Shown one piece after another: positions 1 through 35,925 of a stretch of 45,923 nt of DNA. Made by a program: the position numbers and the translations under genes. Each line of letters starts with the position of its first letter. The first letter of the stretch is position 1. The notes beneath the pieces are model-generated. The model saw only the letters and a program-made list of their open reading frames with translations, was not told where the DNA came from and did not search any database. The stretch is from contig JAUWNN010000001.1 in NCBI GenBank assembly GCA_030612625.1, forward strand, positions 1 through 45,923, given 5' to 3'. The stretch is from a candidate division WOR-3 bacterium. GTDB taxonomy: Bacteria; Hydrothermota; Tepidihabitantia; Tepidihabitantales; Tepidihabitantaceae.

Positions 1-268
1 CTGCGGGTTTGCCTCTTGCACTTTGGCTCTTGACCTATGACTTCTCCTCATCTGTGTCCATCTGTGTTTATCTGTGGTTCACTTTTCCCTTGGCGTTCTT
101 GGCGGTTGACTTCCGTTTCGTGTATTTCGTGATTTCGTGGCCAATCCTGGTTTGGTTGCGGCCCTTCGGGGGCCGCGCTAGGTTCTTGGTGCCTTTGTGT
201 TGAGATTCTGCATTTTGACTTTTGCACTTTGCCTTTTGACTTCCACGTTCTTCGTGTTCTTCGTGGCT
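1..268. repeat. Mosaic stuttered-word repeat block (copy at the window edge)
   Basis: Modules seen: ctcatctgtgtccatctgtgtttatctgtgg, cttggcgttcttggcgg, tttcgtgtatttcgtgatttcgtggccaatcctg, ttgacttttgcactttgccttttgac. A 7-bp hairpin with a uucgg loop lies at 158-176. The same modules recur at 2985-3250 (same orientation), 1020-1190 (inverted) and 32736-32920. Confidence 0.8.
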
Positions 269-973
269 CTATTTCGGTTCTTGGGAAGGCGCAGGCTGGC
301 GGGTTGGGGTGATTTCGCAGAACAGGCTTGACTGGTCCACTTCGTGGATTCGGGTTCTGACATCAAGTCCTGCGGTCAAAGACCGGAACCGGTCGGGCCG
401 GACCGCAGTGCCGGTGAAGCCGTCCCGGCACACAATCACGCCATTGCCGGTCCGGTCCGGGTCGAGTTCACCGACAAGCCCGAGTTCGGACTGGAGTCTG
501 AACCACTCCAGACGGACGTCCCAGAACCTGTCCGAGTAGCTGGAGAACAGGGCTGTGCCTTGGGTCCGGGTGACGCGAACAGCTTCCCGGATAAGGTCCT
601 GCTGGTTGACATGGAACGCCGAGATGCCGTTCTGGATGCAGACGACCCGGTCGAAGAACCGGTCGGGAAACCGGAGCTGAACCGCACTCATTTCCAGGAG
701 CAGGCAGTTGGAAAACTGCTGGAGCGTTTTCCGGCCGAGGTTCAGGCTGGCCCGGGAAGTGTCGATACCGACCGCGAGCCGGGCTTTTCGGGCCAGGGGA
801 CCGAGAACCCGGCCGTAGCCGCAGCCGAGTTCAAGGACTTTGTCCTCGGGCCGGATGAAGGTAAGGACATGGTCCAGTTCGGCCTGAAGGTACTGTTTCA
901 CGCGTGGTGGCGCGATGTCGTAGCAGCGCTTCAGCCGCTCAGCAGAAAGAGTCTCACGGTAGTAATCGCCCAT
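269..973 (-). CDS. Class I SAM-dependent methyltransferase
   Basis: 234-aa ORF with SAM-binding motif I (VLELGCGYGR), a downstream GIDTS segment and the post-I region CIQNGISAF. Its last 5 codons and the TAG stop (269-285) lie inside the repeat module cccaagaaccgaaatag, which recurs at 32741 and about 17280. Confidence 0.8.
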   Translation of the reverse strand: MGDYYRETLSAERLKRCYDIAPPRVKQYLQAELDHVLTFIRPEDKVLELGCGYGRVLGPLARKARLAVGIDTSRASLNLGRKTLQQFSNCLLLEMSAVQLRFPDRFFDRVVCIQNGISAFHVNQQDLIREAVRVTRTQGTALFSSYSDRFWDVRLEWFRLQSELGLVGELDPDRTGNGVIVCRDGFTGTAVRPDRFRSLTAGLDVRTRIHEVDQSSLFCEITPTRQPAPSQEPK

Positions 974-1606
974 ACTCAGATTCTCTGCAGCCGGAGGCAG
1001 TCGTCAAACAGAGCAGTTAGCGGAATTCAACCACAAAGGCGCAAAGGGCAAGAAGAGAGGCACAAGTCAAAAGGCAAAGCGCGGATAGCGGTAGGCGGTC
1101 AGCGGAGAGCGGATTGGAACCGCCAAGAACGCCAAGAGGAGAACTAACCACAGATGAACACAGATAAGCACAGATAGAATACTGGACACAGGATACGGGA
1201 TACAGGGTTCTGGAGTGCAACGACTCTGTCGTTGCTATGGAGTGCGGAGGCGCAAGCCACCGCTTTTCCGCCTCTATGGACTGCAACGACTCTACTGTTG
1301 CGTGGCAGCGACATCCCTGTCGCGATTCAGTTGTTGGCTGTCGGCTGTCAGGGTCGTGTCCTTTCGAGCCTGTCGAGAATTCTCTCTTCAGCCGTCAGCG
1401 GTAAGCGGAGCGCGGTTTCTTTCCTGACCGTAGTTCATCCTTCCGCCTTCATGTTTCAGCCTTTCCACGGTAGGCGGTCAGCGGTCGGCTGGTTTGCTTC
1501 CTCGCCCCTTGTGGGAGAGGATTGAGGTGAGGGGGAAGTATCCAACCGCCAAGGTATGTCCTGAGCGAAGTCGAAGGAACGCCAAGAAGAAAACAGATCA
1601 CAAGGG

Positions 1607-1752
1607 CACCAAGACCAGGACAAATCTGGTTGACCCTTATCGAGCCGGGCCCGCAGCGGAGTGGGCTGCGGAGTCAGCAGCGGACCGAGCTGCTCCAGAG
1701 CTGCTGGGAGGTCACTGGGGAGGTGGTTCTCGATTTCAGTTCGGATTTCAGC
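1607..1752 (+). repeat. 146-nt direct repeat, partner at 45778-45923
   Basis: Hand alignment without gaps gives 7 mismatches in 146 nt (about 95% identity). It starts at accaagaccaggacaaa and ends in the ttcag-type 12-nt units. The partner copy is cut by the window end. Confidence 0.85.
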
Positions 1753-2122
1753 TTCAGGTTCAGCACAAAGCAGAGTCTGAACCGGAGTTTCAGAAAGAGC
1801 GTCTTCTGCACAGCAAAGCCGAGAATGAACGAAAGCACGTTCGACAGCTCTGAAGAGAAAAGCAAAGACGGAATCGAAGACAGCAGAAAGCACAGAAGCC
1901 TCTTCAATTCAAGGCACACAAACAAGCCCGGTTCAAAGCTCAGCTTGAACCAGAGCGTGAACGAGAACCTGCCTTACACAATGAAACAGAGCATCAAACT
2001 CAGCACAATTCGCCGCACGACGCGTTACGCAATTCACGCACGACGCATTACGCATAACGCATTACGCCGGAGGGGAGTTCCGGGGACACATTGTTTAACT
2101 CCTACCCATCTAGCTTCGTCTG

Positions 2123-2194
2123 TTCTACCATCTGATGGTAGTGTCCGCTACGCTTCCATTCTGCCATCGGATGGCAGTGTCCGCTGCGCTCCAA
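2123..2194 (+). repeat. Tandem duplication of a 36-nt hairpin unit
   Basis: Unit 1 (2123-2158) carries the hairpin ctaccat-ctg-atggtag and unit 2 (2159-2194) carries ctgccat-cgg-atggcag. The a->g change in the 5' arm is matched by t->c at the pairing position in the 3' arm. Confidence 0.8.
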
Positions 2195-2427
2195 TCGTCT
2201 TTCTTGTCAATCTTCATGGCACAGCGGCGGGTGTGACCGTCGCCGAAGTAGAGGAGGTTGTCAGGCATTTGGCCTCCATCGGACGAGGGTAATACCCTTG
2301 AGAGAACTCAGGGTGTCACCCTTGCGGTTCAGAAGAATGTGATTCATTATAATTCCTACAAGCATAAAATAGCGGCTGGGCTGCGGATGTCAAGGGTCGC
2401 TGAGGTTTTGCCGGATTTACTTCTAAT

Positions 2428-2751
2428 TCTGAAAAAGGCACGAGAAAAGGCATCTGAAAAGGCTTGTCAAAAGGTTTGCGAAAAGGCTCTGAAAAAGGCC
2501 TGCGGAAAGGCATTTGAAAAGGCTTTAGGAAAGGCCTTGAGAAAGGCGTTGGGAAAGACCTGTGAAAAGACCCATCAAAAGGTCTTGAAAAACGCCTGCA
2601 ACAAGGCAGGGACAAAGACATGAGAAAAGGCTTTGAAAAAGCCCGAGCAAAAGGCCGGGAAAAAGACCTTGAAAAAGGCACCTTGAAAGGTGTCTGAAAA
2701 GGCATCGCAAAAGGGTTGGAAAAAGGCTCAGAAAAAGGCCGGTGGAAAGGG
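2428..2751 (+). repeat. Phased 12-nt degenerate tandem array, 27 units, consensus NNNN-GAAAAGGC
   Basis: I parsed 27 consecutive 12-mers with no indel (tctgaaaaaggc, acgagaaaaggc, atctgaaaaggc ... cggtggaaaggg). The 3' 8 nt are conserved and the 5' 4 nt are variable. Confidence 0.9.
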
Positions 2752-2880
2752 AAGACGAAACCGCTCAGGGGACGGGGGAGGCGGAAATGGCGAATTCCGA
2801 ATAACGAATGGCGATTCAAGGGGTTAGGGAGAATTCCGGCTCCGTGGAAATATGACGAATTAGTCATATTGGCGGCGCCA
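2752..2880 (+). repeat. Conserved module flanking the GAAAAGGC-type arrays (partner 21493-21610)
   Basis: The 44-nt core aaatggcgaattccgaataacgaatggcgattcaaggggttagg (2785-2828) matches 21523-21566 with 1 mismatch. In both loci it lies directly 3' of a GAAAAGGC-type array in the same orientation. Confidence 0.85.
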
Positions 2881-3274
2881 CGCGCCAGGCTTTGATAGGT
2901 GATGAGGGAGTCTTTCGCTTCGCAATGACCGGGACTTGGCGGACTTGGCGGTTCAAATCCGCTATCCGCTGACCGCCTACCGCTATCCGCGCTTTGCCTT
3001 TTGACTTCGCCCTCATCTGTGTTCATCCGTGTTTATCTGTGGTTAGTTTTCCTCTTGGCGGCCTTGGCGTTCTTGGCGGTTGAATCCTTCACCCTCACCT
3101 CAATCCTCTCCCTTCAAGGGAGAGGAGGTCTTCGACGGTCCTTGCGGTTTTGCCTTTTGCGATTTGCACTTTGCCTTTTGACTTGTGCCTTTCTTCGTGT
3201 CCTTGGTGCCTTTGTGTTTAGTCTTCTTGGCGGTTTGGCTCCGATTTGAGGTTGCCGGTTGGTGCAATCGGTGC

Positions 3275-3303
3275 TTGACATTATCAAGGCAGGCCTTTAG
3301 AAT
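3275..3303 (+). promoter_or_regulatory. Sigma-70-like promoter of the secreted CBM/T9SS gene
   Basis: TTGACA (3275-3280), 17-nt spacer, TAGAAT (3298-3303). It sits about 25 nt upstream of the GAAAGGAG RBS and ATG 3329. Confidence 0.55.
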
Positions 3304-3328
3304 CAGCGCGGGCGTGAAAGGAGACCAA

Positions 3329-3895
3329 ATGAGAAAGTACATTCTACTCCTGCTGCCGATGTTCCTGGTCATCGGTTTCGGGCAGGAGCTACTCCAGAAC
3401 GGGGATTTCGAGGATTCCCTTGATTTCTGGACAGTAGAACAAAACAACAACCAGGGCAGTTGGGCGGCCAACTGCTCGACCGGCCATCATCCCGACCCTG
3501 ACATGGAAGCGTACGTGTACAAGTACGACCGCTATTTCGCCCGCATCAAGCAGACCGTTGATTTGCCGAGCACCAATGTTGAGTTTTCGGCTTCAGCCAG
3601 GCTCTACGCCAGGCACATCTCGGGCACCGGGTACTATGCTTATGCGGCGATTATTCTTGAGTACGTCAATTCGCACGGGGGACTGCTGGGCCGGACCATG
3701 ATAATCCAGAAGACTCCGAACTGCAATCTGGAGAATACGTCGGTCCTGCATCTTATCGTCGTGACCAGCACCAACTGGGAGGACTACGACTTCATCATCG
3801 CGGATGAGCTTGCCAACCTCCCCGGGGTGAATCCTGCTGAGGTGGCCAAGATAACGGTCGATCTGGAGAGCTACGGCACCGGCCGTAGCGGCTGA
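3329..3895 (+). CDS. Secreted protein, N-terminal part: signal peptide plus most of a CBM4_9/galactose-binding-like jelly-roll domain; ends at an in-frame TGA
   Basis: Start moved to ATG 3329 (RBS gaaaggag), giving MRKYILLLLPMFLVIGFG as signal peptide. LLQNGDFEDSLDFW is a typical CBM-type domain start. The ORF stops at TGA 3893-3895 before the domain's terminal strand. Confidence 0.7.
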   Translation: MRKYILLLLPMFLVIGFGQELLQNGDFEDSLDFWTVEQNNNQGSWAANCSTGHHPDPDMEAYVYKYDRYFARIKQTVDLPSTNVEFSASARLYARHISGTGYYAYAAIILEYVNSHGGLLGRTMIIQKTPNCNLENTSVLHLIVVTSTNWEDYDFIIADELANLPGVNPAEVAKITVDLESYGTGRSG

Positions 3896-5485: not shown

Positions 5486-5504
5486 CCGCTCAGGTTTCTT
5501 AATT

Positions 5505-5531
5505 CTGGGGCGTCCTTTATGGGCGCCCCAG
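5505..5531 (+). terminator. Possible intrinsic terminator
   Basis: ctggggcg (5505-5512) pairs with cgccccag (5524-5531), followed by a weakly T-rich stretch (tcttagttgtt). It lies 20 nt after the stop codon. Confidence 0.4.
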
Positions 5532-5726
5532 TCTTAGTTGTTCGTGCTGTTGCAGGAAGTGACAACTGTTCTCTTGACCAGAAAGAGAATCGGATTAGTT
5601 TATGGCGGTGTTCTTGTATTTTCTATTGGCAATATGCTTGCCCGGGACAAAGTATGGGCGGTCAGCGCAGAGGAGTTATGAAAAGCCCAATGAGCACAGA
5701 GAATGAGGGAAAGGCTGTAGTTTAGT

Positions 5727-10698: not shown

Positions 10699-10722
10699 CT
10701 GCCTGAGCCCGGCAGGTCGGCT

Positions 10723-10950
10723 TCAGGTCTGGTCCGGGATTTCAAGTATCTTGTTCCGTGCACGCTGGCCGGCTACGAGCCGGACTGAGGATTTGGGAAT
10801 ACCCAGGAAGCGGGCAACCGCCTTGACAACCGCTTGGTTGGCCTTTCCCTGTCTGGCTGGTGCTTTAACCCGTACCCGGAGTGTACCATCAGGCAGCCTT
10901 ATGACTTCGTCGGTTGTGCTTCCCGGCTGAACCTTGACCTTCAGCCGCAT
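10723..10950 (-). CDS. DUF167 (YggU-like) family protein
   Basis: 75 aa; RVRVKAPARQGKANQAVVKAVARFLGIPKSSVRLVAGQRARNKILEI matches the YggU pattern. Its ATG shares one nt with the nrdD TGA (TGATG). Confidence 0.75.
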   Translation of the reverse strand: MRLKVKVQPGSTTDEVIRLPDGTLRVRVKAPARQGKANQAVVKAVARFLGIPKSSVRLVAGQRARNKILEIPDQT

Positions 10951-13379: not shown

Positions 13380-13568
13380 TGCTTCCTCCTTCCCTCAGGT
13401 TATTCAGTTCGGTCATGAATTGCTCTGCGTTTCCAAACTGGCGATAGACAGATGCGAACCTGATACAGGCAAGTACCGTTTCTTCCAGTTCCTTACTGTC
13501 CGGCCGTCGTGTGCCGGCTTGGAGCCCGGCACACAGTGAACATCAAACCCATGAAACGAACAGTTCAT
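13360..13568 (-). pseudogene. nrdR: nrdR relic (internally deleted and frameshifted)
   Basis: The minus-strand frame through 13385-13500 reads DSKELEETVLACIRFASVYRQFGNAEQFMTELNNL, the conserved NrdR C-terminus (IRFASVYR core). Only about 60 codons remain of roughly 150. The possible N-terminal remnant MNCSFHGFD (ATG at 13568) is in another frame. Confidence 0.6.
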
Positions 13569-13583
13569 ATAGTATCAGTATCT

Positions 13584-13611
13584 CTTATACCACAGCAGGT
13601 TGAGAAGTCAA
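13584..13611 (-). promoter_or_regulatory. Sigma-70-like promoter upstream of the nrdR relic and nrdD
   Basis: Minus strand: TTGACT (13611-13606), 16-nt spacer, TATAAG (13589-13584). Confidence 0.45.
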
Positions 13612-13791
13612 GAAGCAATAATGACATCCCTGTGATTCTGTAATTGCTTGACAGATTTGCGTTTGCGTTCCCGGGGGTGTGTGCACCATATCACAACGAA
13701 AAGGGGATTTGTATCAGAGGTTGTCGGGAATACGGAAGCTTTTTTGGGATATTGTCCACATGGTTATCCACAGGTTATCAACAGGATAGTC

Positions 13792-14827: not shown

Positions 14828-15412
14828 ATGAAGAAGTTCATTGCGCTGGTCTGTCTGGTCGCCGGCACGGTCTTCGGGGCAACTCCTTTCCTGTCAGTCA
14901 AAGCGGCCCAGCCTTCTGCTGAAGGGATGCGCTCAGCATATCATATCCTTCCGGTTGCCGGCGTCGGGGTCAGGTTTCCGCGTTCGGAAAACCTGGCGCT
15001 CAGAACTGAATTGTCCGGGACTTATGCCCAGGGAGTCGGGTCGTTTTCTACCTTCAGCCTGTGGAATGCAGGGTTGCGGTTCGGGGTCGAATTCAACTTC
15101 AGTCCGTATCTGGATGCTTACCTGGTTCCCGGTGTAATGCTTGCCTATGCCGCAGAAAGGACACCGGATGCGGACACGCTGGGAAATATCGGATACCACT
15201 GGTATGGCGGGACAAGTATGGGGTGTTCCTTTGATGCTGGAATTCTGCTGTTCCGGGCCGGGAACTGGCGGTTCGATATCGAATGCGGGGCAGATGTGCT
15301 TTCTGTTCCCACTGACAAGCCCATCATCGACCCGGGCTGGTCTCCGTCCTGGTGGCACTATTCAATTCAGTTGTCCGGTTTCAACCTGGGTCTGGTTGTC
15401 GGGATGCAATGA
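14828..15412 (+). CDS. Putative exported beta-barrel-like protein
   Basis: Signal peptide MKKFIALVCLVAGTVFG followed by alternating hydrophobic beta-strand-like segments rich in G/Y/F/W. No family recognised. The stop overlaps the next gene's start (ATGA). Confidence 0.45.
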   Translation: MKKFIALVCLVAGTVFGATPFLSVKAAQPSAEGMRSAYHILPVAGVGVRFPRSENLALRTELSGTYAQGVGSFSTFSLWNAGLRFGVEFNFSPYLDAYLVPGVMLAYAAERTPDADTLGNIGYHWYGGTSMGCSFDAGILLFRAGNWRFDIECGADVLSVPTDKPIIDPGWSPSWWHYSIQLSGFNLGLVVGMQ

Positions 15413-16371
15413 TGCGCTGGTTATGTCTCAGTCTGATTGCCGCTGGTTGGCTTTTTGGAGACGGCGGGATGGTCGTACCGCCTAACGAGGAAATTGAGGA
15501 GTTCGGCCAGGTGGCGATTGTCAAGTTCCTTGAAGGCCGTGAAGAACTTTCCATCTCGACCAAGTTCATGTCCTATTCAACAGATTTCGCCTGGGTGGTG
15601 CCGTTACCTTCAGAGCCGGTGGTCGATTCGGTAAGCCAAGAGCTGTTTTCCGAACTGCAGCATTTCTGCCGACCTCTGTACCGAAGGAGTGGCGGGTTCG
15701 GCTGTGGGTTCGGGGGGTTATCTGAGGAAGGCCCGGGCGGCAGGTACGGCGATTCGCTCGGGGTTGAAGAAGTCAGCGGCGGCATTATCGGAGACTATTC
15801 GTACCAGGTGCTACTGGCGTTCAATCCCGATACCCTGGAAAGCTATCTGACCGGTCACGGCTATGAGTTACCTTATGGTGCGGCCGCGATTTTCAACCAC
15901 TACCTGGAGAAGAACTGGAACTACTTTGTTGTGGCCCGGGTCAGAGACAGTGTCACAAGGTATGAAACCCGCAATATCGGAATCAGGCTGTCGTTTGATG
16001 CCGATTCGCTGGTTTACCCATTGTACATCAGCCGCATCGGTTCCGTTGCTTCAGACGTGATACTCTATGTGCTTGCCGACCACCGGCAGATGTTTCCGGG
16101 CGCACAACTGAAGTTCTCGGGTAAGGTGAACCAGAACAGCTTCAAGGATTTCCCGGGTTTTGTGGACCGTCGCTGTCATCTGACCAAACTCATGAAGGAG
16201 TACGAGCCTGACCAGATGGAGGACATCTATCTCAAGCAGGCACCGGATGACAAGGACTTTCGTTACATCGAGTACTACGGCGGCGGCTGGCTCGGGATGC
16301 TCGGAAGTTCGGCTGTGTTTGCGGTCGTCCTGTTCCTGCGGCGCAAAAGGAAAAGGCGGTCAGGCCCTTGA
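15409..16371 (+). CDS. DUF2330-like exported protein with C-terminal membrane anchor
   Basis: Signal-like N-terminus MMRWLCLSLIAAGWLFG, then the FAWVVPLPSEP motif I recall from DUF2330. C-terminal TM helix plus a basic tail (RRKRKRRSG). Confidence 0.45.
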   Translation: MMRWLCLSLIAAGWLFGDGGMVVPPNEEIEEFGQVAIVKFLEGREELSISTKFMSYSTDFAWVVPLPSEPVVDSVSQELFSELQHFCRPLYRRSGGFGCGFGGLSEEGPGGRYGDSLGVEEVSGGIIGDYSYQVLLAFNPDTLESYLTGHGYELPYGAAAIFNHYLEKNWNYFVVARVRDSVTRYETRNIGIRLSFDADSLVYPLYISRIGSVASDVILYVLADHRQMFPGAQLKFSGKVNQNSFKDFPGFVDRRCHLTKLMKEYEPDQMEDIYLKQAPDDKDFRYIEYYGGGWLGMLGSSAVFAVVLFLRRKRKRRSGP

Positions 16372-16534
16372 ACCCTGGAATTCTTGAACCCTGTCCGAAC
16401 AGGTTTTCTAATTCCGGTCTGTAGCCGTCAGCCCCTGTCTACTGTATTCTGTCTCCCGTCTTCTATCCTCGGGCTGTCGGCAGTGAGCGGAAACGTGGGT
16501 AACGTCCCCAGGTTTCTTAATTCTCCCGGTCGTG

Positions 16535-17134: not shown

Positions 17135-17398
17135 ATATCCTCACATTCGACTGTTACGGGCGTTTCTCAGAATCCTCCGGCAACCGGGATTCGGGACCCG
17201 GCGCCGGTGGTCCTTCACACTGCTACAACCTATATCCAATTCCGGGCAGATGTCAAGCTGGAAGCTGTGACCCAAGAACCGGAATAGAACCATGAAGACA
17301 GGAAACGGCTGAACCGCAGATTACGCAGATTGTACAGATAGGGGTCCGGAAAGGAATCTGCGTTCATCGGTATTCATCTGCGGTTACTTCTGTTTCGT

Positions 17399-17511
17399 GG
17401 ATTGGACGGCGCTTTGCGCCGGGCCGGATAAAAATGGGAATTCCTTTCTTATCAAAGTCTGCCGCGCAGCGGCATCCTTCTTTCGTGGCCAATCCTGTAT
17501 CGGTTTTCGGG
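17399..17511 (+). repeat. 113-nt repeat module, inverted partner at 38857-38970
   Basis: The reverse complement aligns with 38857-38970 at roughly 85-90% identity (cccgaaaaccgata[c/t]aggattggccacgaaagaaggatgccgctgcgcggcagac...ggaattcccatttttatcc...cgccgtccaatcc). Partial copies lie at 128-150, 29117-29162, 32893-32925 and 45683-45706. Confidence 0.85.
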
Positions 17512-17606
17512 CTGTGAGCGGTCAGCGGACGGCGCATCAGCATCTGTACGTCTTTCTTGTCAATCTTCATGGCGGCGGGAGTGTAGGTAACGTCCCCAGC
17601 AACCGC

Positions 17607-17894
17607 CGAGACCAAGATTTAGACAAAGGCCGACGCAAAGGCTCGGACAAAGACCAACGGAAAGGCTGAGACAAAGACCGGCACAAAGACCAGGACCAAG
17701 GTCGAGACAAAGGCCGAAACATAGACCGAGACAAACGCCGAGACAAAGGCCAACACAAAGACTGAAACAAAGACCAGGACAAAGGCCGGCACGAAGACCC
17801 GGACAAAGACCGGGACTAAGACCGAGACAAAGGCCAACACGAAGGCTGAAACAAACTCCGGCACAAAGGCTGAAACAAAGACCGGCGCAAACGC
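17607..17894 (+). repeat. Phased 12-nt degenerate tandem array, 24 units, consensus NNNR-ACAAAGRC
   Basis: 24 consecutive 12-mers with no indel (cgagaccaagat, ttagacaaaggc, cgacgcaaaggc ... cggcgcaaacgc). Confidence 0.9.
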
Positions 17895-18528
17895 TCCCCT
17901 AAACGGCCCCTGGGAGACCCACCCCGAGATTTCTTACGGCTGCTTTGCCCATATCGGGATATAACTCTGTGGAAGGATGGAATGGAAGCGAAGCAGATGG
18001 CGCAACTGTTCCTCTTGTCACCCCGCTCTGCTCTGAGCATAGCCTGCCCTGTGCCAGAGGGGCAGGTGCCGTCCGACGGCTCACCTGTCGAAAGGTGCCA
18101 TTCGATGGCTCAAGGGTCTCTCTGCCCAGCCGTCGGCTGCAAGCTGTCAGCGGCGGGCGAGGGTTGTCATTGCGAGGCCGCAAGGCCCGTGGCAATCCGA
18201 CGCCCTGCGTCGCCCTGAGTTTGACGAAGGGTCTCTCCTGCTGTCGGCTGTCAGCGGTCGGCAGTTCGCGGTAAGCGGTGGGCGGAAATGGGTATTATGT
18301 CCCCTTATCTTCCCTTAATATCCCATGTCCCCTTAATATCCCTGGTCGTCTTTCGTGTCAATCTCCATGGCAGCGGGTGGGAGATGCGTATTGTGTCGCC
18401 TTATCTCCAAAGGAGCATCGTTATCGGCTATTGACAAGAGGCTTTTCATAGAAGCGTCACCGTTTGTTCTCCAGCGGCTTAAGCGCCCGGGGTGGAAATA
18501 GGTGGTTGTCCCTAATTAGCCCTATGTA

Positions 18529-21340: not shown

Positions 21341-21740
21341 CCAAAGGATGAGCCAAAGGTTTTGAAAGCAGAAGTATCGGTGCGAGAACGGGCCTCAAAA
21401 CGGGCTTTGAAAAAGGTATCTGAAAAAGGTATTTGACAAGGTATCGCAGAAGGGCTGAAAAAGGCCTGGGAAAAGGCCGCTGAAAAGCGAAGGCAGAACC
21501 TTCTGGGGAACGGGGGAGGGGTAAATGGCGAATTCCGAATAACGAATGGCGAATCAAGGGGTTAGGAGGAATTTGGGGCTTGATGGGATATGACTAACTG
21601 GTATTGTCGGTCCATTCTCGTGCAGGCGGCGAGGAACCGGAGAAGTCAGAGTTCAGAAGTCAGAGACCAGAATGCAGAAAGCCCGGGCCGGAGTTCTGAC
21701 TTCTAGTGTCTGCATTCTGACTTCTGCATTGTCCTGTCTT
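21341..21740. repeat. Repeat block: short irregular GAAAAGG-type array, conserved flank module and a long imperfect inverted repeat
   Basis: An irregular 11-13-nt array lies at about 21340-21492 (tttgaaaaaggt, atctgaaaaaggt, atttgacaaggt, ctgggaaaaggc ...). The flank core is at 21523-21566. The inverted repeat cagaagtcaga...gaatgcaga / tctgcattctgacttctg spans 21641-21730. Confidence 0.75.
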
Positions 21741-21902
21741 GCCTGGTGCCACGGCTTAACTGGCTGGAAATCAATACGTTATCTATGTGCTGGCAAGAGA
21801 CTTACTCGGATGCCGAATGTCGAACACCAAGTGATGATTTGTGCCAGGTGATGAATCTGGAATCGGAGACCGGCTTAAGACCGTCTAAGACTATGATAGC
21901 GA

Positions 21903-22520
21903 ATGGGTAAGACCAGAAAAGGCCCTGTTACAAAGCTCAAGCATCGAGTCAGCGAGCTTGAGCAGGAATGTGTCGATTATAAGGACAAGTATGTGCGGTC
22001 TTTGGCTGAGTTTGAGAACTATCGCCGGCGCACCCAGCGTGAGTTTGAGACGGTGCGCCAGACCGCTATCGAGGGTCTGCTGGCTGAGCTTGTGTCGGTG
22101 CTGGATAACTTCGACCGGGCAGTGGCAACAACGCACTACGCATTACGCCATACGCAACACGCCGCGAAGGCCGGGACCACGCCGCAGGACAAGGACGCCG
22201 CAATGGTAGGAGAAACCACAGAGGCACAGAGAACACCGAGTCAGAGACTGGACAAGGTGCATGAGGGCATCGTGCTCATCAGGCGGCAGTTGCAGGACGC
22301 TCTTGCCCGGCACGGGTTGGTGGAGTTCAGTTGTCTGGGTGAGGAGTTCGACCCACGCAGAGCTGAAGCGGTGAGTTTTGTCCACACTGACGAGCATCAG
22401 GCCGACACGGTAGTGGAAGAGCATTGCAAGGGATACTGCTGCGAGGACAGGGTAATCAGGCCGGCAAGAGTCGTGGTGGCCAAACCCAGGGCCAAGGCAC
22501 GAAGTGCGACTGACGAATGA
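21903..22520 (+). CDS. grpE: Nucleotide exchange factor GrpE, with a lineage-specific in-frame insert
   Basis: KYVRSLAEFENYRRR, LLAELVSVLDNFDRA, EGIVLIRRQL, FDPRRAEAV. About 46 aa separate DNFDRAV from EGI, versus about 14 in the E. coli and B. subtilis GrpE sequences as I recall them. Confidence 0.9.
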   Translation: MGKTRKGPVTKLKHRVSELEQECVDYKDKYVRSLAEFENYRRRTQREFETVRQTAIEGLLAELVSVLDNFDRAVATTHYALRHTQHAAKAGTTPQDKDAAMVGETTEAQRTPSQRLDKVHEGIVLIRRQLQDALARHGLVEFSCLGEEFDPRRAEAVSFVHTDEHQADTVVEEHCKGYCCEDRVIRPARVVVAKPRAKARSATDE

Positions 22521-26497: not shown

Positions 26498-26560
26498 GAA
26501 GTGAAGTCTATTTTGGCCCTGGGCTCAGCGCGGGCCACAGAAAGGAGGTGTTCCTGAACC

Positions 26561-26758
26561 ATGGCAGGTATTATTGTCAAAGAAGGTGAGTCGTACGAGA
26601 GCTTCATGCGTCGGTTCCGTCGCGCCTGTGAAAGGGCGGGCATCTTGCGCGATGTCAAACGGCGTGAATTCTACGAGAAGCCGAGCGTACGACGGAAGCG
26701 GAAGCTGGCTGAAGCGCGGCGACGCGCCTGGCGTAGACAACACCAGGAGTATCGCTAG
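26561..26758 (+). CDS. rpsU: 30S ribosomal protein S21
   Basis: 65 aa; VKEGESYESFMRRFRRACERAGILRDVKRREFYEKPSVRRKRK. RBS AAAGGAGG. Confidence 0.93.
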   Translation: MAGIIVKEGESYESFMRRFRRACERAGILRDVKRREFYEKPSVRRKRKLAEARRRAWRRQHQEYR

Positions 26759-26786
26759 CCGCGGGCCACAACAGCAGGAGTGGTCA

Positions 26787-29165
26787 TTGGCCGGGCGTAG
26801 CCTTGAACTGTTGGACTTCCCACGCATCAGGGAACTGGTGGCCGGGTTCTGCCGGACACAGATGGGCAAAGAACCGGCACTTGGTATGTTGCCGCGAGCT
26901 GACCCTGAGTGGGTTGCAGAAGAGCTTGACAAGGTGGACGAACTGCTGGCATTGGGTGAAGAGCCAAGTCTGTCCGAAGTGGTAGATGTGCGTGATTTGC
27001 TGACCCGGGCACGGCAGGGAGCAGCGCTCAGCGGTAAGGAGTTGCTGAATGTGAAGCAGGTCTGTGCCGGGATTCGGAGATGCCGGCAGTTTTTTTCCCG
27101 CCGGCGCGACCGGATTCCAAAGGTCTGGCTGATAGCACGTTTGCTTGTTGAACAGGCCGAGTTGGAGCAGGCGGTCGAGAAGGCGCTTGACGATGCCGGG
27201 GAGGTTTGTGATACAGCAACTCCAAGATTGAAACAGACCAGGCAGGAGCTGCGGCGGCGGCGCAACAAGCTGGTTTCTCGCCTGGAGCATATGGCAGCAG
27301 ACCATCCGGACTGGTTTACCGACCGACCAACAGTTCGGCGGGACCGCTTCGTGCTGCCGGTGCGGATTGAGGCACGCGACCGGGTAACCGGAGTGATACA
27401 CGAGAGCTCGGGCACCGGTCATACCCTGTTTGTCGAACCGATGGAGACGGTTGGCGAGCAGAATGAGCTGGCAGAGTTGCGGGGCATTGAGGTTGAGGAG
27501 GTTGCCCGGATTCTGCGGTCCTTGTCCGACTTGGTGGCGGAGCGCGAACAGCAGTTGCGGGCAAGTCTGACCCGGACAGGTAAGATTGACCTGCTGCTGG
27601 CCAAGCGGCGTTTTGCTTTGGAGTTTGACTGCAAACGGCCGGAAATCACTGATGACGGGGGGATTCAACTGGTTGCGGGTCGGCATCCGCTGCTTGTCCG
27701 GAGAAAGGTTCGTGTGGTGCCGCTTGACTTCGGATTCCCGGAAGATGCTCAGGTTGTGTTGATTTCCGGGCCGAATGCGGGCGGCAAAACCGTAGCCATA
27801 AAAACCCTTGGGCTTCTCAGCCTGATGATGGGGTGCGGCATGCATCTGCCGGTAGGTGATGGAGCAAGGCTGCCGCTGTTCCGGGAGGTGTTTGCCGATA
27901 TCGGCGACGAACAGTCGCTTGATTCGGACCTTTCGTCGTTTACCGCCCATATGACAAGGCTGAAGGGTATTCTCGAACAGGCTGACGAGCATAGTCTGGT
28001 CCTGCTTGATGAAATCGGTTCTTCCACTGCTCCGGAAGAAGGGGTTGCGCTGGCAATTGCGGTGCTGGAGATTCTTCGGAATCGCGGAGTCCGGACCGTT
28101 GCCACGAGCCATTTCGGTGTCTTGAAGGTATTCGTGCAGGACCAGCCCGGGATGGTGAACGCGGCAATGGGTTTTCAGGACGGCCAGCCCACCTACCGGT
28201 TGACAATCGGTTTTCCGGGTGAGTCCAGTGCCTTTGAGATAGCGGCCGGTGTCGGGCTGCCCGATGAACTGCTTGAGAAGGCACAGGCACGGTTGGGACG
28301 GGAATGGCTGGACTTGAGTACCAAGCTGCGGGATTTGAATCAGGAGCTGGAGCAGGCCCGGGTGTCCCGGCAGACCGCAAGCGAGGAGCAAGCACGGGCT
28401 GAGCGGCTGAGACTGGAGTACGAGGAGAAGCTTGTCGGGCTGAGGCAGCGGGCAGCAGATGAACAGCAACGACTGCGAGCCGAACAAGAAACTTTCTTAA
28501 GGGAAACCCGGCGCGAGGTTGAGAATCTGGTTCGGCAGATTAAGGAAAGCCAGGCAGAACATGAGGCGGTTGTCAAGGCCAAGCGGTATGTTGAGGACCG
28601 GCTCAAACAGGTGACTGCGACTGCTGCTGAGGTCAAGGAGAAGCATCCTTCATTCGAACTTACGGTCGGAGACGTTGTGGAGTCACGGATGTTCCAGCGC
28701 CGCGGGGTAGTGGCAGACATCAGGCGCGACCAGGTGACAGTGGCGTTCGGGCAGATTCGGATGCAGCTTTCTGCCGATGACCTGACACTCGTGCAATCAG
28801 AAGTCAGACAGAAACAAGAGGTTGCCGAGCCAGGTGAATCATACAGTTTTGAGCCTAAACTGAGTATCAGAGGGATGACCAAGGAACAGGCATCTGAAGC
28901 GGTCAGCCGGTTTCTGGATGAAGCCGGTTGTTTCCGAGCAAAGCAACTGGCGATACTGCATGGCAAGGGAACCGGGGCCTTGCAGAGAATGCTCTGGGAC
29001 CGTCTGCGCAAAGACCCACGGGTAGAGGAACTCCGGTTTGGCGAGGAGTATCAAGGCGGCAGTGGAGTGACTCTCTTGACTTTGAGGATGCCGCGCAGCG
29101 GCAGTTCAGAAAAGAACAAGGAATTTCCTTCTTCTATTCGGCCCGGCGCAAAGCGCCGTCCATAA
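26787..29165 (+). CDS. mutS2: Endonuclease MutS2 (MutS domains III/V plus C-terminal Smr)
   Basis: Walker A ISGPNAGGKT, LLDEIGSST, a long coiled coil and an Smr domain (LSIRGMTKEQA...ILHGKGTGALQ). Start placed at TTG 26787, six nt after AGGAG; the ORF-track start 26574 overlaps rpsU. The last roughly 15 codons lie in a repeat module. Confidence 0.85.
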   Translation: MAGRSLELLDFPRIRELVAGFCRTQMGKEPALGMLPRADPEWVAEELDKVDELLALGEEPSLSEVVDVRDLLTRARQGAALSGKELLNVKQVCAGIRRCRQFFSRRRDRIPKVWLIARLLVEQAELEQAVEKALDDAGEVCDTATPRLKQTRQELRRRRNKLVSRLEHMAADHPDWFTDRPTVRRDRFVLPVRIEARDRVTGVIHESSGTGHTLFVEPMETVGEQNELAELRGIEVEEVARILRSLSDLVAEREQQLRASLTRTGKIDLLLAKRRFALEFDCKRPEITDDGGIQLVAGRHPLLVRRKVRVVPLDFGFPEDAQVVLISGPNAGGKTVAIKTLGLLSLMMGCGMHLPVGDGARLPLFREVFADIGDEQSLDSDLSSFTAHMTRLKGILEQADEHSLVLLDEIGSSTAPEEGVALAIAVLEILRNRGVRTVATSHFGVLKVFVQDQPGMVNAAMGFQDGQPTYRLTIGFPGESSAFEIAAGVGLPDELLEKAQARLGREWLDLSTKLRDLNQELEQARVSRQTASEEQARAERLRLEYEEKLVGLRQRAADEQQRLRAEQETFLRETRREVENLVRQIKESQAEHEAVVKAKRYVEDRLKQVTATAAEVKEKHPSFELTVGDVVESRMFQRRGVVADIRRDQVTVAFGQIRMQLSADDLTLVQSEVRQKQEVAEPGESYSFEPKLSIRGMTKEQASEAVSRFLDEAGCFRAKQLAILHGKGTGALQRMLWDRLRKDPRVEELRFGEEYQGGSGVTLLTLRMPRSGSSEKNKEFPSSIRPGAKRRP

Positions 29166-30832: not shown

Positions 30833-32637
30833 GAAAAAAGAAGAAGGTCAAAACCAGCGAAGGCACCAGGCGTTCTGCTGCTGGTTCCAAGGTCAGCAAG
30901 GAGGCCGGTTCCAGGAAGAAATCCAAAACAACGGCCAAGAAGAGTATCAAACGGGCTTCAACTGCTGCGCCGAAATCCGGTAGCAAGCGGCTGAAGGCAA
31001 AAGAGAAGCCGACCCGAGTGGCGAAGAAAAGGAAAGCCGGGGCCAAGACGAAGCGCGCGGCCTGGCTGGAATTGGTCTACAAGAAGGCGGCTTCTGACAA
31101 GCGGATAACCTATGAGGAGCTTGATGAGCTTCTTCCCGATGATGTTCTGATGTCATCGGAACGGCTTGACGAGCTGATTGCGAAGCTGACTCGCGAGGGG
31201 ATTCGGGTGACTGAGTCGCACAAGGAGGAACCGGTCATCTTCCGCAAAGGACCAAAGCCGACTATTCAGCGCACGGAAGACCCGACCAAATCGTACTTCC
31301 GGGAGCTTTCGAAACTGCCGCTCTTGACCCGCGAGGAGGAAATTCACTACTCCAGGGAGATGGAAGAGGGCTACGAGAATATCATGCAGTTTCTGTTCAG
31401 GCCGGTGGCGATGATACGGGAGCTGGTTGAGGAGTGCGGCGGAGTTGAAGAAGGAACCAAGTCGCTGGACCAGATCGCCCGGGTTGAGTTCGAGTGTTTG
31501 TTCGACCAGAAAGCTCTTTCCCGTGACCGCCAGAAGTTCATCAGCCATGTCCGGAAGATCCGTCGCGAGGCGAACCGGATTGAGGAACTCAGGAGAGGGA
31601 GGAAGTCGGACTCCGATATTCAGGGTCAGTTGGTGGAATCCCGGTACAAGGTCTTCAAGTGGATAAAGAAGCTTTCACTCCAGCATCATCTGGTTAACAG
31701 CTTTCTCAGCGGATTCAAGAAGACGACGGCAAAGGCGCTGGATTATGCCGAGCAATTGCAGCAGGCACGAAATGAGGAGCGCGAGAAGACTGACGAGGTG
31801 AAAGAACTCCGGCGAGACCTGCGGGAAATCCATGCTTTCCTGGGAGGGAACACCGCGGAGATCAAGAGAATGATTGTTGAAATGGAGTTGTGCGACCGGC
31901 GGATACTGGCAGCCCGGGACAAGATGATTGAAGGAAATGTCAGGCTGGTGATTTCTATCGCTAAGCGGTACGTCAATCGCGGTCTGGAATTCGCCGACCT
32001 CCTTGAAGAGGGGAATGTCGGTTTGATCAAGGCAGTGGAGAAGTTCAACTACCGCAAGGGGTTCAAGTTCTCCACTTATGCAACTTGGTGGATAAAGCAG
32101 GCGATAACGCGGGCGATAGCGGACCAGTCGCGGACAGTTCGGGTTCCGGCTCACATTATCGACGCTATCAACAAGGTGTCGAAGCTGCAGCGGAAATTCA
32201 TGCAGCAATTCGGACGTGCGGCAACGGTAGCGGAACTGGCACAGCGGCTTTCTACACCCAAGGAGAAAATCGAGGCATTGACGCGCATATCCCAGTTTGG
32301 TGTGTCTCTGGACAAACCGGTTGACGATGACGAGTCGAGCTTCATCGGCGACTTCATCTGTGATGAGAAGACCGCCTCGCCGTCTCATGGGGCCGGCATA
32401 TCGCTTTTGGGCGAGAAGCTGGAAGATGCCTTGAAGGTGCTTTCCAGGCGGGAGGAAAAGGTGCTTCGGCTGCGTTTTGGACTGGGAGACGGCTGTCCGC
32501 GGACCCTGGAAGAAGTGGGGCAGATTTTTAATATCACCCGCGAGCGGGTGCGCCAGATCGAGGCCAAGGCCCTCAGAAAGCTGCGCCATCCGGTGAGGTT
32601 GAGGAAGTTTGAGGCGCTGAAAGATATGCTGAAATGA
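30829..32637 (+). CDS. rpoD: RNA polymerase sigma factor RpoD with a Lys-rich N-terminal extension
   Basis: Region 2 ([12 protein letters not shown]...[45 protein letters not shown]), region 3 and region 4 ([28 protein letters not shown]). ATGA overlap with dnaG. Confidence 0.95.
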
Positions 32638-32977
32638 GCCGGCTGGGGCTGATTTCCGATACTCATGACAACCTTGGCAAAGTCAGGGTTGCGGTGGAAC
32701 TGTTCAACCGGCTCAAACCGGATATGGTTCTGCACTGTCCCAAGAACCGAAATAGAGCCACGAAGACACGAAGAACACGAAACGGAGATAGGGTGACACC
32801 CTGCGCAGCGCAAGGGTGTCACCCCTACTGCGCAGGGTGTCACCCTTACAAGTTCTGGATCCGGGAGGTTCCGTCTTTCGTGGATTTCGTGATTTCGTGG
32901 CCAAACGTATATCGGTTTTCGGGACTGTGGCGCTGCTGGATACCGACACCGGCATGGTTGAGTTCTTCGACTTGTAG
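32634..32977 (+). pseudogene. Relic of a YfcE/MJ0936-type metallophosphoesterase whose core is replaced by a repeat element
   Basis: The N-terminal 35 codons read [35 protein letters not shown] (DxH motif; ATGA-coupled to rpoD), then run into the repeat at 32736. In a different frame, 32921-32977 reads GTVALLDTDTGMVEFFDL*, a typical C-terminus of this family. The GD, GNHD/E, His and GHTH motifs are missing. Confidence 0.65.
32736..32920. repeat. Mosaic repeat element inside the phosphoesterase relic
   Basis: Contains cccaagaaccgaaatagagccacgaagacacgaagaacacgaaac (also inverted at 240-290), the near-perfect 16-bp hairpin gggtgacaccctgcgc-a-gcgcaagggtgtcaccc (32791-32824) and tttcgtggatttcgtgatttcgtggccaaac. 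Confidence 0.85.
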
Positions 32978-33025
32978 GAGTTTTTCCTGACTCGACAAGA
33001 GACCAAAGCCGTAGTCACAGAGTCG

Positions 33026-35643: not shown

Positions 35644-35662
35644 AACCCTGGAACCCTTTTTC
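35603..35662 (+). repeat. Module B repeat (ggttcaaggggccaagggttc...cctggaaccc), possibly acting as the hflX terminator
   Basis: The sequence ggattcaaggggccaagggttcaaccctggaaccctagaaccctggaaccc is followed by ttttt. gggttc/gaaccc can pair. Confidence 0.7.
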
Positions 35663-35664
35663 TA

Positions 35665-35853: not shown

Positions 35854-35870
35854 TTTACCTCCTGTTACAA

Positions 35871-35925
35871 AAAGGGTTCAAGGGGCCAAGGGTTCGAGGG
35901 TTCAAGTCCTGGAACCCTTTCTTTG
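35871..35925 (+). repeat. Module B repeat copy
   Basis: aaagggttcaaggggccaagggttcgagggttcaagtcctggaaccctttc. Confidence 0.8.

Follow-up and report, generated by a model that had tools for sequence, protein, structure and literature searches.

Mosaics of stuttered short words in the intergenic DNA of a candidate division WOR-3 bacterium resemble small foldback elements

What occupies so many of the intergenic gaps of this candidate division WOR-3 genome, and above all the 2.3-kb block at 974-3274, is the question raised by the 45,923-nt window (the whole stretch of DNA that was analysed). On balance, the loci probably represent accumulated small, non-coding sequences resembling foldback mobile elements, belonging to several families, MITE-like, and related in design to the intervening sequences (IVSs) of rRNA. 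The first-pass annotation had described a mosaic family of stuttered 7-12 nt words, and the family is real: a strict detector (an identical 6-mer three times, spaced 7-12 nt) found 15 loci in the window, of which 12 lie between genes (9.2 kb in all), two lie where the ORFs of hflX and rpmE run on into modules at their tails, and one is a CCG run, whereas 30 dinucleotide shuffles of the intergenic DNA yielded none. The words and hairpins reported before were recovered: cacagat three times (1149-1175), gccaagaa twice (1122-1136), cacgaaa three times (116-139 on the minus strand, and 32759-32786), ggaaccct three times (39023-39049), gtcaaaaggcaaag (1066, 227, 2992 and 3169), a cUUCGg hairpin at 158-176, a GCAA-loop hairpin at 18176-18187, and gcaacgac-tct-gtcgttgc at 1217-1236.

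Self-BLASTN and repeat finding within the window placed dispersed repeats almost exclusively in the gaps named by that annotation, and dispersed copies (80 nt at 91% identity, 82 nt at 88%, 147 nt at 95%) link those loci through a common vocabulary, much of it in hairpins. The longest of these pairs, 1608-1754 and 45777-45923, are recent copies. The extent of the family had been overstated: the listed loci total about 6.0 kb rather than roughly 7 kb, and the family occupies about ten of the 15 gaps of at least 150 nt rather than nearly every long gap, being absent from 5486-5726, 10699-10949, 13380-13791, 14902-15351 and 44563-44742.

Most modules are inverted-repeat arms made of short words in two to six tandem copies, with a fixed polarity, the A-rich arm being 5' and the T-rich arm 3'; many arms are solo. 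Arm composition is extreme (A 40-43%, T 4-14%), and stop codons occur in the arms at about half the expected frequency. The possibility that the arms are designed to be stop-free was rejected, the deficit being taken as a side effect of composition. The long ORFs in the large gaps (for example 2316-3026, minus strand) arise because the strands are depleted of A or T, and ten ORFs inside 974-3274 and 17135-18528 had no match in Pfam. Rfam at the gathering threshold matched no family, rRNA included, anywhere in the window, nor did an E-value threshold on 1-3400; the sole gathering-threshold match among 18 loci was one tRNA, in L022. A search of the window for tRNA and tmRNA found none.

The block at 974-3274 is a composite with inverted arms of 150-300 nt and a recurring module order. 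Its features, and those of the first gap, are as follows.

1-286, no strand assigned: T-rich composite arm block
1-45 and 200-245, in block 1-286: TTTTGCC-type 7-mer words
49-76, in block 1-286: ATCTGTG three times
89-107, in block 1-286: CTTGGCG twice
116-157, in block 1-286: TTTCGTG three times and a degenerate E-type right end
247-265, in block 1-286: TTCTTCGTG twice
268-285, minus strand: E-family left end, abutting the methyltransferase stop codon
1029-1206, plus strand: A-rich left arm of the 974-3274 composite
1207-2931, no strand assigned: composite interior, no ORF with a Pfam match
1207-1330: hairpin cluster, z -3.1
1499-1553: GGGAGAGG-type hairpin and AACCGCCAAG
1608-1754: copy of 45777-45923, 95%
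2006-2067: ACGCATT heptamer run
2125-2195: two 30-nt hairpin units in tandem
2196-2220: 25-nt motif with further copies at 17549 and 18347
2430-2760: 12-nt array of GAAAAGGCnnnn, about 27 units
2719-2864: copy of 21457-21602, 77%
2932-3240, minus strand: T-rich right arm of the composite, its reverse complement reading K-H-P-Q-K-G-P

The left arm runs in the order K (GTCAAAAGGCAAAG), G (GCGGnnn five times), P (AACCGCCAAG twice), Q (CCACAGAT three times) and ATACAGG four times, is 40% A and 8% T, and has no structure when folded alone (z -0.4). The right arm pairs with it in stretches of 80 nt (91%), 68 nt (81%) and 55 nt (87%), as well as with 1499-1553 (55 nt at 85%); peat contigs of Acidobacteriota type match the segment 3141-3191 of the right arm (51 nt, 94% identity). 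Modules had been thought to vary freely in order and orientation, but the K-X-P-Q order recurs three times and arm polarity is fixed. Strict nesting was considered for the composite and rejected, as its two sides are repeated K-X-P-Q series rather than mirror-nested arms.

The claim that the family lacks fixed ends does not hold for one set of sequences, the E family, in which alignment across copies shows that the ends (left CCCAAGAACCGRAATAGARCCAYGAAGA, right TTTCGTGGCCAAWCSTRTATCGGTTTTCGGG) match and the interiors differ. The terminal motif occurs seven times in the window against 0.15 expected, a count that leaves out one further match inside a WD40 coding repeat, and conserved 30-nt ends are common to distant loci.

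17271-17511, plus strand: E2, complete E element of 241 nt with both conserved ends
32739-32923, plus strand: E3, complete E element of 185 nt with arms GCCACGAAGACACGAAGAACACGAAACGGA and its inverse
38857-38976, no strand assigned: E4, partial E element, matching the right half of E2 in reverse complement (87-88%)
45689-45923, plus strand: E5, E-family end CCGAAAACCGATATAGG followed by ACGCATT-type words
29115-29162, minus strand: 48-nt mutS2-tail fragment, 81% complementary to the E2 interior (17403-17450)

Both complete copies are flanked by direct repeats, E2 by CTGTGA (17265-17270 and 17512-17517) and E3 by ACTGT (32734-32738 and 32924-32928); these two cases are of unequal length (6 and 5 bp) and both contain CTGT, so they may reflect target preference or coincidence. 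E2 folds with a z of -3.1 and appears to have inserted into a G-type module, its reconstructed target AAGCTGTGAGCGG resembling AAGCTGTCAGCGG at 18141. E3 folds end to end (32738-32924; -101 kcal/mol, z -10.6) and lies in a decayed Metallophos_2 gene; excising it with one repeat copy restores ...DMVLHCG..., and with it the HCG motif of the host pseudogene. From 45777, E5 is the 95% copy of 1608-1754 and runs past the window end. The fragment at 29115-29162 separates the conserved end of MutS2 from the dnaG ATG (29166) and encodes the last 18 or so residues of the MutS2 ORF. Neither E2 nor E3 had a BLASTN match in a plasmid collection. At least the E family looks like a miniature transposon.

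The remaining module loci of the window comprise hairpins, word blocks and 12-nt arrays.

16360-16534, no strand assigned: convergent gap between the DUF2330 and PIN genes, with CCCTTGAACCCTGG-type words overlapping the DUF2330 stop codon, a CTGTCT stutter and G-type words
17549-17573 and 18347-18371, in block 17549-18371 (no strand assigned): 25-nt motif, two copies
17621-17895: 12-nt array of GACAAAGRCCRR, about 22 units, T 4%
18126-18290: G-type stutters enclosing the GCAA-loop hairpin at 18176-18187
21396-21740, no strand assigned: block with a short 12/13-nt AAAAGG array at 21396-21500
21457-21602: segment homologous to 2719-2864
21635-21735: AGAAGTC/CAGAATG stutter hairpin, z -2.7
35597-35663, no strand assigned: N1 hairpin, AAGGGGCC/AAGGGTTC words against GGAACCCT three times, z -2.6, overlapping the last hflX codons
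35866-35925, no strand assigned: N2 hairpin (z -3.1) in the gap that separates the ferredoxin gene from prfA
37068-37190, no strand assigned: N3 block of inverted N-type words
38976-39085, no strand assigned: N4 hairpin directly after E4, z -2.1
39850-40140, no strand assigned: 12-nt periodic TTCAGCnCCGRR block, membership uncertain

The last of these lies in a locus (39780-40196) that had been counted as a member; its 12-nt periodicity stands, and its membership is uncertain because the block is open in five of six frames and may therefore be an acidic-repeat ORF. Its words resemble words at 1690-1760.

Intrusion of modules into genes, also claimed previously, is confirmed at the ends of hflX, rpmE, mutS2 and the DUF2330 gene and in one pseudogene; N3 supplies the last 28 residues of ribosomal protein L31, a tail missing from relative L123, and an in-frame heptamer run was seen in grpE. 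The stop codons of hflX, rpmE, mutS2, the DUF2330 gene and the methyltransferase gene all adjoin copies, and K-type hairpins in Terriglobia contigs often begin 5-30 nt past a stop codon, as might be expected of host-serving extragenic palindromes of the REP/BIME type, acting as 3'-end stabilisers, terminators, processing sites or nucleoid-protein sites and propagated by recombination or gene conversion. The mosaic likewise recalls BIMEs in its several motif types, and the small C- and K-type hairpins of other genomes have no target duplications beyond palindromic dinucleotide artefacts. This explanation is possible but rather unlikely, because elements also fill the divergent promoter gaps 974-3328 and 21341-21902 and the pseudogene, the syntenic gaps of relatives manage without modules (in L123 hflX is followed by a plain GC hairpin), exact direct repeats flank the two complete E copies, the arms are tandem words rather than the short GTAG-head palindromes of REPs, and the hairpins are followed not by T-runs but by flanks that prolong the stem.

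The first-pass annotation had also proposed that absence of the modules from relatives would count against the family. The nearest WOR-3 relatives, with the same gene order, do lack modules in the corresponding gaps, but two word families are widespread in other phyla, and absence from near relatives therefore does not settle the matter. Words of the GCCACGAA type recur as hairpins in at least ten phyla, the threefold GCCACGAA pattern being found at at least 120 genome loci in at least ten phyla; among 125 such arms, a strict inverted partner lies within 300 nt on the downstream side in 45 and on the upstream side in one. AAGTCAAAAGGCAAAG words recur as hairpins in Acidobacteriota. AAGTCAAAAGGCAAAGYGC was found at at least 120 metagenome loci, with the partner downstream in 35 of 108 and upstream in none; the similarity of such loci to the window reaches 94% over 51 nt, and one contig of this type is from Terriglobia (83-86% protein identity). 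The same element design is present in isolate or complete genomes of Herpetosiphon, Flavobacterium, Marinobacter and Chromobacterium and in a complete Pyrinomonadaceae chromosome. Against viral contigs the K pattern had no matches, the E-end and N-word patterns had about the number expected by chance (the collection size being a rough guess) with no extended similarity, and the C pattern matched 21 contigs. An exact-protein look-up with the ferredoxin and Rho of the window found no other strain on record, and a literature text search (GCCACGAA/TTCGTGGC, GxxExxY) found no description of such elements.

Different lineages have different word vocabularies, word copy number varies (the right arm is shorter in L163 than in L161, and Coxiella heptamers vary similarly), and the cross-phylum likeness of low-complexity words could be partly convergent. 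Together with the extreme composition of the arms, these observations would suit stutters grown in place by slippage-prone replication or hairpin-templated repair, with likeness between loci due to convergent low complexity. Such an origin is improbable, since distant loci have long non-repetitive stretches in common (147 nt at 95%, 82 nt at 88%, the 30-nt E ends), and exact direct repeats at E2 and E3 and fixed polarity are unexpected from slippage alone.

The 12-nt arrays invite another explanation, in which word arrays, especially 2430-2760 and 17621-17895, are binding platforms (a sponge or decoy for a regulator or RNA-binding protein) or non-coding RNA genes. Their phase is regular over 22-27 units with a conserved AAAGRC core, and heptamer direct repeats have been proposed as sites of post-transcriptional regulators in Beggiatoaceae and cyanobacteria (PMC4679880). 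However, this function is doubtful for arrays that have no Rfam match and no parallel in relatives or any other fetched locus, and whose units have drifted to about 65-70% identity. Collapsed or chimeric metagenome joins at repeats are highly improbable, even though the window is one metagenome-type contig and assemblies often break at such repeats (contigs bearing GxxExxY are in many cases about 1 kb long), because gene order across the blocks agrees with three relatives, the design is present in isolate and complete genomes, and junctions between elements and host genes are clean.

The reading as accumulated foldback elements also draws on gene-bearing copies in other phyla, which hold genes for GxxExxY (PDDEXK_3) or 23S-rRNA-IVS proteins in the loop. 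All 12 PDDEXK_3 or 23S_rRNA_IVP ORFs in the fetched loci lie beside stutter words, most clearly in the form of inverted arms on either side, and all five GxxExxY loci of an independent, protein-selected sample have such arms. An S23p (PF05635) ORF lies between K-type arms in four loci (L153, L132, L158 and L172), and one contig, L058, contains gene-less and gene-bearing copies with common arms. None of the window copies has an S23p ORF, and Pfam scans of the window found neither a transposase, as had been noted, nor a cargo gene, and therefore no autonomous partner was identified.

From these parts a mechanism can be proposed. Each arm is a 7-12 nt word in two to six tandem copies, and with an A-rich arm 5' of its T-rich inverse a single strand of DNA or RNA could form a long stem with regular small internal loops. 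The E family combines conserved ends with interiors that vary and with apparent target duplications of 5-6 bp. The elements would be mobilised in trans by an enzyme encoded elsewhere; a single transposition chemistry cannot cover the whole class, given the small C- and K-type hairpins without target duplications. Insertion of elements next to or within others, combined with slippage of the word arrays, would produce the mosaic and the 2.3-kb composite at 974-3274, the arrays acting as multivalent binding sites as well as slippage substrates. The many solo arms count against this reading, as do the 12-nt arrays, which lack an inverted partner and have no counterpart in the other loci. RNase III may cut transcribed copies out, as it does IVSs, which would explain their tolerance at operon junctions. 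The window elements would be local, cargo-less members of a broad class that elsewhere carries a GxxExxY/PDDEXK_3 nuclease or S23p gene, and classical rRNA IVSs look like a special case of this class. More tentatively, stutter-armed foldback elements may form one phylum-spanning superfamily, in which autonomous forms depend for mobility or maintenance on the GxxExxY (PDDEXK_3) nuclease or on an S23p/Avd-like four-helix-bundle protein, 23S rRNA IVSs are copies that landed in rRNA, and the WOR-3 genome represents an extreme cargo-less (MITE-like) expansion that remodels gene ends.

If correct, this would provide a common explanation for rRNA IVSs and their S23p ORFs, the highly paralogous GxxExxY and four-helix-bundle families, and heptamer stutters between genes in many uncultured phyla, with the PDDEXK_3 nuclease, S23p and RNase III as candidate mobilising or processing factors and Marinobacter, Chromobacterium, Flavobacterium and Herpetosiphon as culturable carriers. 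Near-identical arms in WOR-3 and Acidobacteriota would be evidence for cross-phylum transfer of very small elements. For annotation, the elements would add tails to real proteins (L31, HflX, MutS2), give rise to spurious long ORFs, stop codons being scarce in strand-asymmetric arms, and break assemblies.

Among known systems, the family belongs to none of REP/BIME, ERIC, RPE or CRISPR, as had been suggested before. REP/BIME and REPIN-RAYT sequences are likewise abundant extragenic hairpin repeats, often just past stop codons, in mosaics of motif types, but REPs are short imperfect palindromes (20-40 nt) with a GTAG head, mobilised by RAYT, whereas the window arms consist of stuttered words, have GCCAC or CCC at their ends and do not pair with themselves (z -0.4), and no RAYT was seen, nor a Y1 transposase in Pfam scans of the window. 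CRISPRs have repeats of 25-50 nt, unique spacers and cas genes; here the periods are 7-12 nt and spacerless, and Pfam scans of the window found no cas genes. RPEs are in-frame palindromic elements inside functional genes, which the modules resemble only in behaviour: C-terminal read-through tails, one pseudogene insertion and the single grpE run. The foldback (FB) transposons of Drosophila have long inverted arms of short tandem repeats, variable arm length and optional cargo, but are a design analogy only, being eukaryotic and having no known relationship of sequence or enzyme to the window elements.

Cyanobacterial STRR and Beggiatoaceae TAACTGA repeats are also intergenic 7-nt tandem words of patchy cross-phylum spread (PMC4679880); those are direct arrays of a single word, often upstream of start codons, whereas the window combines words with inverted copies. 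Bacterial MITEs such as Correia/NEMIS are closer: small (under about 600 bp, as are E2 at 241 nt and E3 at 185 nt), non-coding, multicopy, inserted near or into genes, with conserved terminal inverted repeats as in the E family, flanking repeats as at E2 and E3, and internal tandem repeats, such as the minisatellite inside a P. gingivalis MITE (PMC4596501). They differ in that here it is the arms that are built of tandem words, no IS is known whose matching ends would make it the parent, one copy is unrelated to another in its interior, and sister hairpin families have no target duplications.

The 23S rRNA IVSs of Salmonella, Leptospira and Coxiella differ in position, since window copies are intergenic or at gene ends rather than in rRNA helices 9, 25 or 45, and the window copies are ORF-less, far more numerous and nested into mosaics. 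The Coxiella IVS has been described as selfish DNA that ends in inverted repeats, encodes S23p and is cut out by RNase III, and whose GACAGAT heptamer is repeated three times in tandem with variable copy number (PMC4990558). The likeness lies in a selfish insert whose terminal inverted repeats form a long stem, in a loop that may hold an S23p/four-helix-bundle ORF, as in Terriglobia copies with the K arm of the window, in a sporadic distribution suggestive of horizontal transfer (PMC4990558), and in the arm itself, the threefold GACAGAT of Coxiella being close to the threefold CACAGAT of the window.

The long open reading frames (ORFs) of the window form an ordinary chromosomal segment that includes grpE-dnaK-dnaJ, rsmE, mutS2, dnaG, rpoD, hflX, prfA, rpmE, rho and nrdD, an RNase E/G gene and several genes of secreted proteins; as the first-pass annotation had claimed, no transposase was found among them. 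Its RpoD shares 74-75% identity with proteins of candidate division WOR-3. Three relatives (L121, a complete genome of 3.26 Mb; L123/L124; L125) are collinear with the window from grpE as far as hflX and a ferredoxin gene, and in L121 and L123/L124 the shared order extends through prfA, rpmE and rho. Relatives possess a ribosomal protein S21 gene between rsmE and mutS2 (L121 5783-5974, compared with window 26498-26900); one translated frame of that region of the window showed none (it may be absent or encoded in a different frame), and about 90 codons are added at the 5' end of mutS2 by comparison with relatives. The minus strand at 40197-42989 encodes a 930-aa protein with WD40 repeats, a Ras/Roc-type GTPase domain and a C-terminal TIR_2 domain, an architecture that resembles bacterial TIR-containing signalling or defence proteins. 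The 15-mer AGGTTTCTTAATTCT is found twice in gaps (5493-5507 and 16511-16525), one copy just 3' of a secreted-protein gene and the other adjoining a PIN gene.

The earlier observation of stuttered 7-12 nt words in the gaps is confirmed, each quoted word and hairpin being present where it had been placed, and its interpretation is partly supported. Tandem Repeats Finder reports dozens of arrays with periods of 7-14 nt, mostly in gaps. A strict detector, requiring three occurrences of one 6-mer spaced 7-12 nt apart, found 15 loci in the window: 12 lie in its intergenic DNA, which totals 9.2 kb, two are at the 3' ends of hflX and rpmE, whose last codons run on into modules, and one is a CCG run. 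No strict stutter appeared when the intergenic sequence was dinucleotide-shuffled 30 times. Dispersed pairs match at 91% over 80 nt (1057-1136/2935-3014), 88% over 82 nt (17430-17511/38857-38938) and 95% over 147 nt (1608-1754/45777-45923). The extent had been overstated: the listed loci total about 6.0 kb rather than roughly 7 kb, and of the 15 gaps that reach 150 nt or more, about 10 hold the family and five are without it, rather than nearly every long gap being occupied. Taken alone, the window has a heavy but ordinary-looking repeat load.

Base composition differs sharply between the two strands of the stuttered blocks (A 40-43% and T 4-14%, or the reverse), so that stop codons are few, which explains the long Pfam-less ORFs in gaps. 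T-rich inverse copies pair with the A-rich blocks. The solo A-rich arm at 1040-1180 has no self-structure (folding z-score, z, -0.4); the following arm pairs each form a single long stem.

32738-32924, arm-pair stem, -101 kcal/mol, z -10.6
21630-21740, arm-pair stem, z -2.7
35597-35663, arm-pair stem, z -2.6
35866-35918, arm-pair stem, z -3.1
38980-39085, arm-pair stem, z -2.1

Stuttered words are grouped into module types (K, G, H, P, Q and C), arranged as follows in the composite locus 974-3274 and at the left edge of the window.

1029-1206, left arm of the composite, A-rich, modules K-G-P-Q
2932-3240, right arm of the composite, T-rich, modules in the A-rich sense K-H-P-Q-K-G-P
1-286, separate locus, modules ...C-P-Q-K

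Module order had been described as differing between loci; it does vary, but not freely, as a series of K, a variable module, P and Q recurs. A mirror-nested order for the composite was ruled out by this same series.

The further claim that the repeats lack fixed ends fails for one family, E, in which the ends can be aligned across copies but the interiors cannot. Its left end, CCCAAGAACCGRAATAGARCCAYGAAGA, and right end, TTTCGTGGCCAAWCSTRTATCGGTTTTCGGG, are imperfect mutual inverses. The terminal motif has eight matches, of which seven are element-related sites (0.15 expected) and the eighth lies in a WD40 coding repeat (42640-42656).

17271-17511, E2, complete copy, CTGTGA on each flank
32739-32923, E3, complete copy, ACTGT on each flank
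177-285, partial copy
38857-38976, partial copy
45689 onward, partial copy

Exact direct repeats abut the conserved ends precisely in both complete copies, the two on which the evidence for duplication rests. E3 lies in a decayed Metallophos_2 gene, and its excision in silico with one repeat copy brings back ...DMVLHCG..., with which the HxGD motif of the family begins. The Metallophos_2 (YfcE-like) remnant spans 32634-32990, between rpoD and a TP_methylase gene, and L123 (11771-11997), the closest relative, has a remnant of the same gene; because different parts are deleted, decay was independent in the two, and the host gene of E3 was already dying. E2 is located within a G-type module, and its reconstructed target, AAGCTGTGAGCGG, is similar to AAGCTGTCAGCGG at 18141.

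The reported intrusion of modules into genes is borne out, element DNA supplying several protein tails and stop-codon regions. It contributes the last 28 residues of the L31 protein (37081-37170), which in L123 ends at 74 aa, as well as the HflX tail (35597-35643), the stop codon region of the DUF2330 gene (16360-16371) and about 18 residues of MutS2 (29115-29165), ending just before the dnaG ATG at 29166; mutS2 and dnaG overlap in relatives. The grpE gene contains an in-frame ACGCACT/ACGCATT/ACGCCAT heptamer run (22125-22163). This word type recurs at 2020-2067 and 45723-45751, and the run falls in a part of the protein where the Pfam match to GrpE has to accommodate about 30 additional residues. 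In another WOR-3 MAG (L028, 1060-1095 and 1861-1920), a RimO/MiaB-like ORF crosses modules of CTTGGCG-type and TGCAAGA-type words in frame, with short low-complexity segments added between conserved domains.

The window's modules are absent from the syntenic gaps of L121, L123 and L125, and their gain or loss therefore dates from after approximately genus- or family-level divergence, but two of the word types are widespread elsewhere. When one genome of each species was scanned for GCCACGAA-N1-4-CACGAA-N1-4-CACGAAA, at least 120 loci were found, where a rough estimate for random sequence is a handful. The matches listed are from Acidobacteriota, Chloroflexota, Planctomycetota, Gemmatimonadota, Bacteroidota, Verrucomicrobiota, Proteobacteria, WOR-3 and others, and include isolates of Herpetosiphon, Flavobacterium, Marinobacter and Rhodocyclus. 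Typically the triple word is followed 10-100 nt on by its inverse, ending ...TTCGTGGC; among the matches listed, a strict inverted partner lies downstream of 45 of 125 arms and upstream of one. The pattern is also present in 21 IMG/VR viral contigs (L246-L266), several times as inverted pairs about 60 nt apart; these may be phage DNA or host flanks of prophages. The K word, AAGTCAAAAGGCAAAGYGC, was found at no fewer than 120 loci in a metagenome scan, and those listed are mostly hairpins (partner downstream in 35 of 108, upstream in none); one contig belongs to Terriglobia by 83-86% protein identity. K-word loci are 94% identical over 51 nt to window 3141-3191 and also have a GGGAGAGG-type hairpin, as at 1499-1553 and 3090-3126. 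The vocabulary differs by lineage, and the window combines several. No target duplications were found at either GCCACGAA-type or K-type hairpins.

In the distant phyla that share these arm types, some copies carry small genes. Stuttered words adjoin all seven GxxExxY ORFs (TIGR04256; PF13366, PDDEXK_3) and all five ORFs for the protein of 23S rRNA intervening sequences (IVSs; PF05635) in the fetched loci, usually as inverted arms on both sides. Because these loci had been chosen by the words themselves, an independent sample of GxxExxY homologues was drawn by protein search (five distinct loci, Chromobacterium vaccinii and Thiohalobacter being represented by complete genomes): GCCACGAA- or GCCACGGA-type arms are at the gene in all five, and inverted arms on both sides in four. 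Two gammaproteobacteria (L058 1320-1815; L284 450-1095) have a GxxExxY gene with GCCACGAA/GCCACGGA arms between accB and accC. The Thiohalobacter accB-accC element has two nested arm pairs. Public GxxExxY homologues are mostly on contigs of only about 1 kb, as would be expected if repeated arms routinely broke short-read assemblies.

Inverted-repeat elements whose arms are word arrays make up the loci. In at least one family the ends are fixed and duplications flank the copies, and elements occur within other modules and at operon junctions. On balance they are probably MITE-like foldback mobile elements, and any particular mobilising enzyme can be proposed with much less assurance. The mobilising enzyme would act in trans from a gene located elsewhere: E would use a transposase of the cut-and-paste or copy-in type that leaves 5-6 bp duplications, and GCCAC-type hairpins, which have no duplications and may therefore require other chemistry, perhaps a PDDEXK_3 nuclease. 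Subterminal repeats act as multiple binding sites in many transposons, and the word arrays may be putative binding sites of this kind, expanding and contracting by slippage. If RNase III trims transcribed copies as it does IVSs, an insertion at a gene end or in the spacer of an operon would be nearly harmless.

Host-serving hairpins similar to REP/BIME are a doubtful alternative; the elements fail the defining features of REP/RAYT, CRISPR and RPE, in keeping with the first-pass annotation. In-situ growth by slippage, a process that could also act on the arms of mobile elements, is improbable as the origin of the loci. Binding platforms or genes for non-coding RNA are similarly improbable and concern chiefly the 12-nt arrays, which remain the least explained part of the loci: one of about 27 units in the interior of the composite, with further hairpins, a copy of the 45777 segment and a heptamer run; another like it (about 22 units) at 17621-17895; and a short array at 21396-21500. 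Either a common 25-nt motif or a common 146-nt segment accompanies each array, and none has an inverted partner. An assembly artefact is scarcely credible.

The loci are best described as inverted-repeat mobile elements and IVS-like inserts whose unusual part is the stuttered-arm design, and it is the wider pattern, hairpins with stuttered arms that span phyla and consistently surround GxxExxY and S23p (IVS-encoded protein) genes, that merits follow-up. No published description of such intergenic elements was found in the literature. Beggiatoaceae and cyanobacteria are known to have direct repeats of heptamers, distributed patchily across phyla (PMC4679880), and Porphyromonas gingivalis a MITE containing a minisatellite (PMC4596501). 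The closest described object is the 23S rRNA IVS. That of Coxiella, called a selfish element, has inverted repeats at its boundaries that pair into a 28-bp stem, and the loop holds an S23p ORF. It also has the heptamer GACAGAT three times in tandem, a copy number that is strain-dependent; it is cut out by RNase III and has been proposed to be of mobile origin and horizontally transferred (PMC4990558). The elements of the window work like MITEs and IVSs but are not demonstrable members of either: their copies are not in rRNA, and the duplications come from two copies, with no parent element identified in the window. On contig L058, identical arms are found on a gene-less hairpin and on a gene-bearing element, the classic relationship of a MITE to its parent.
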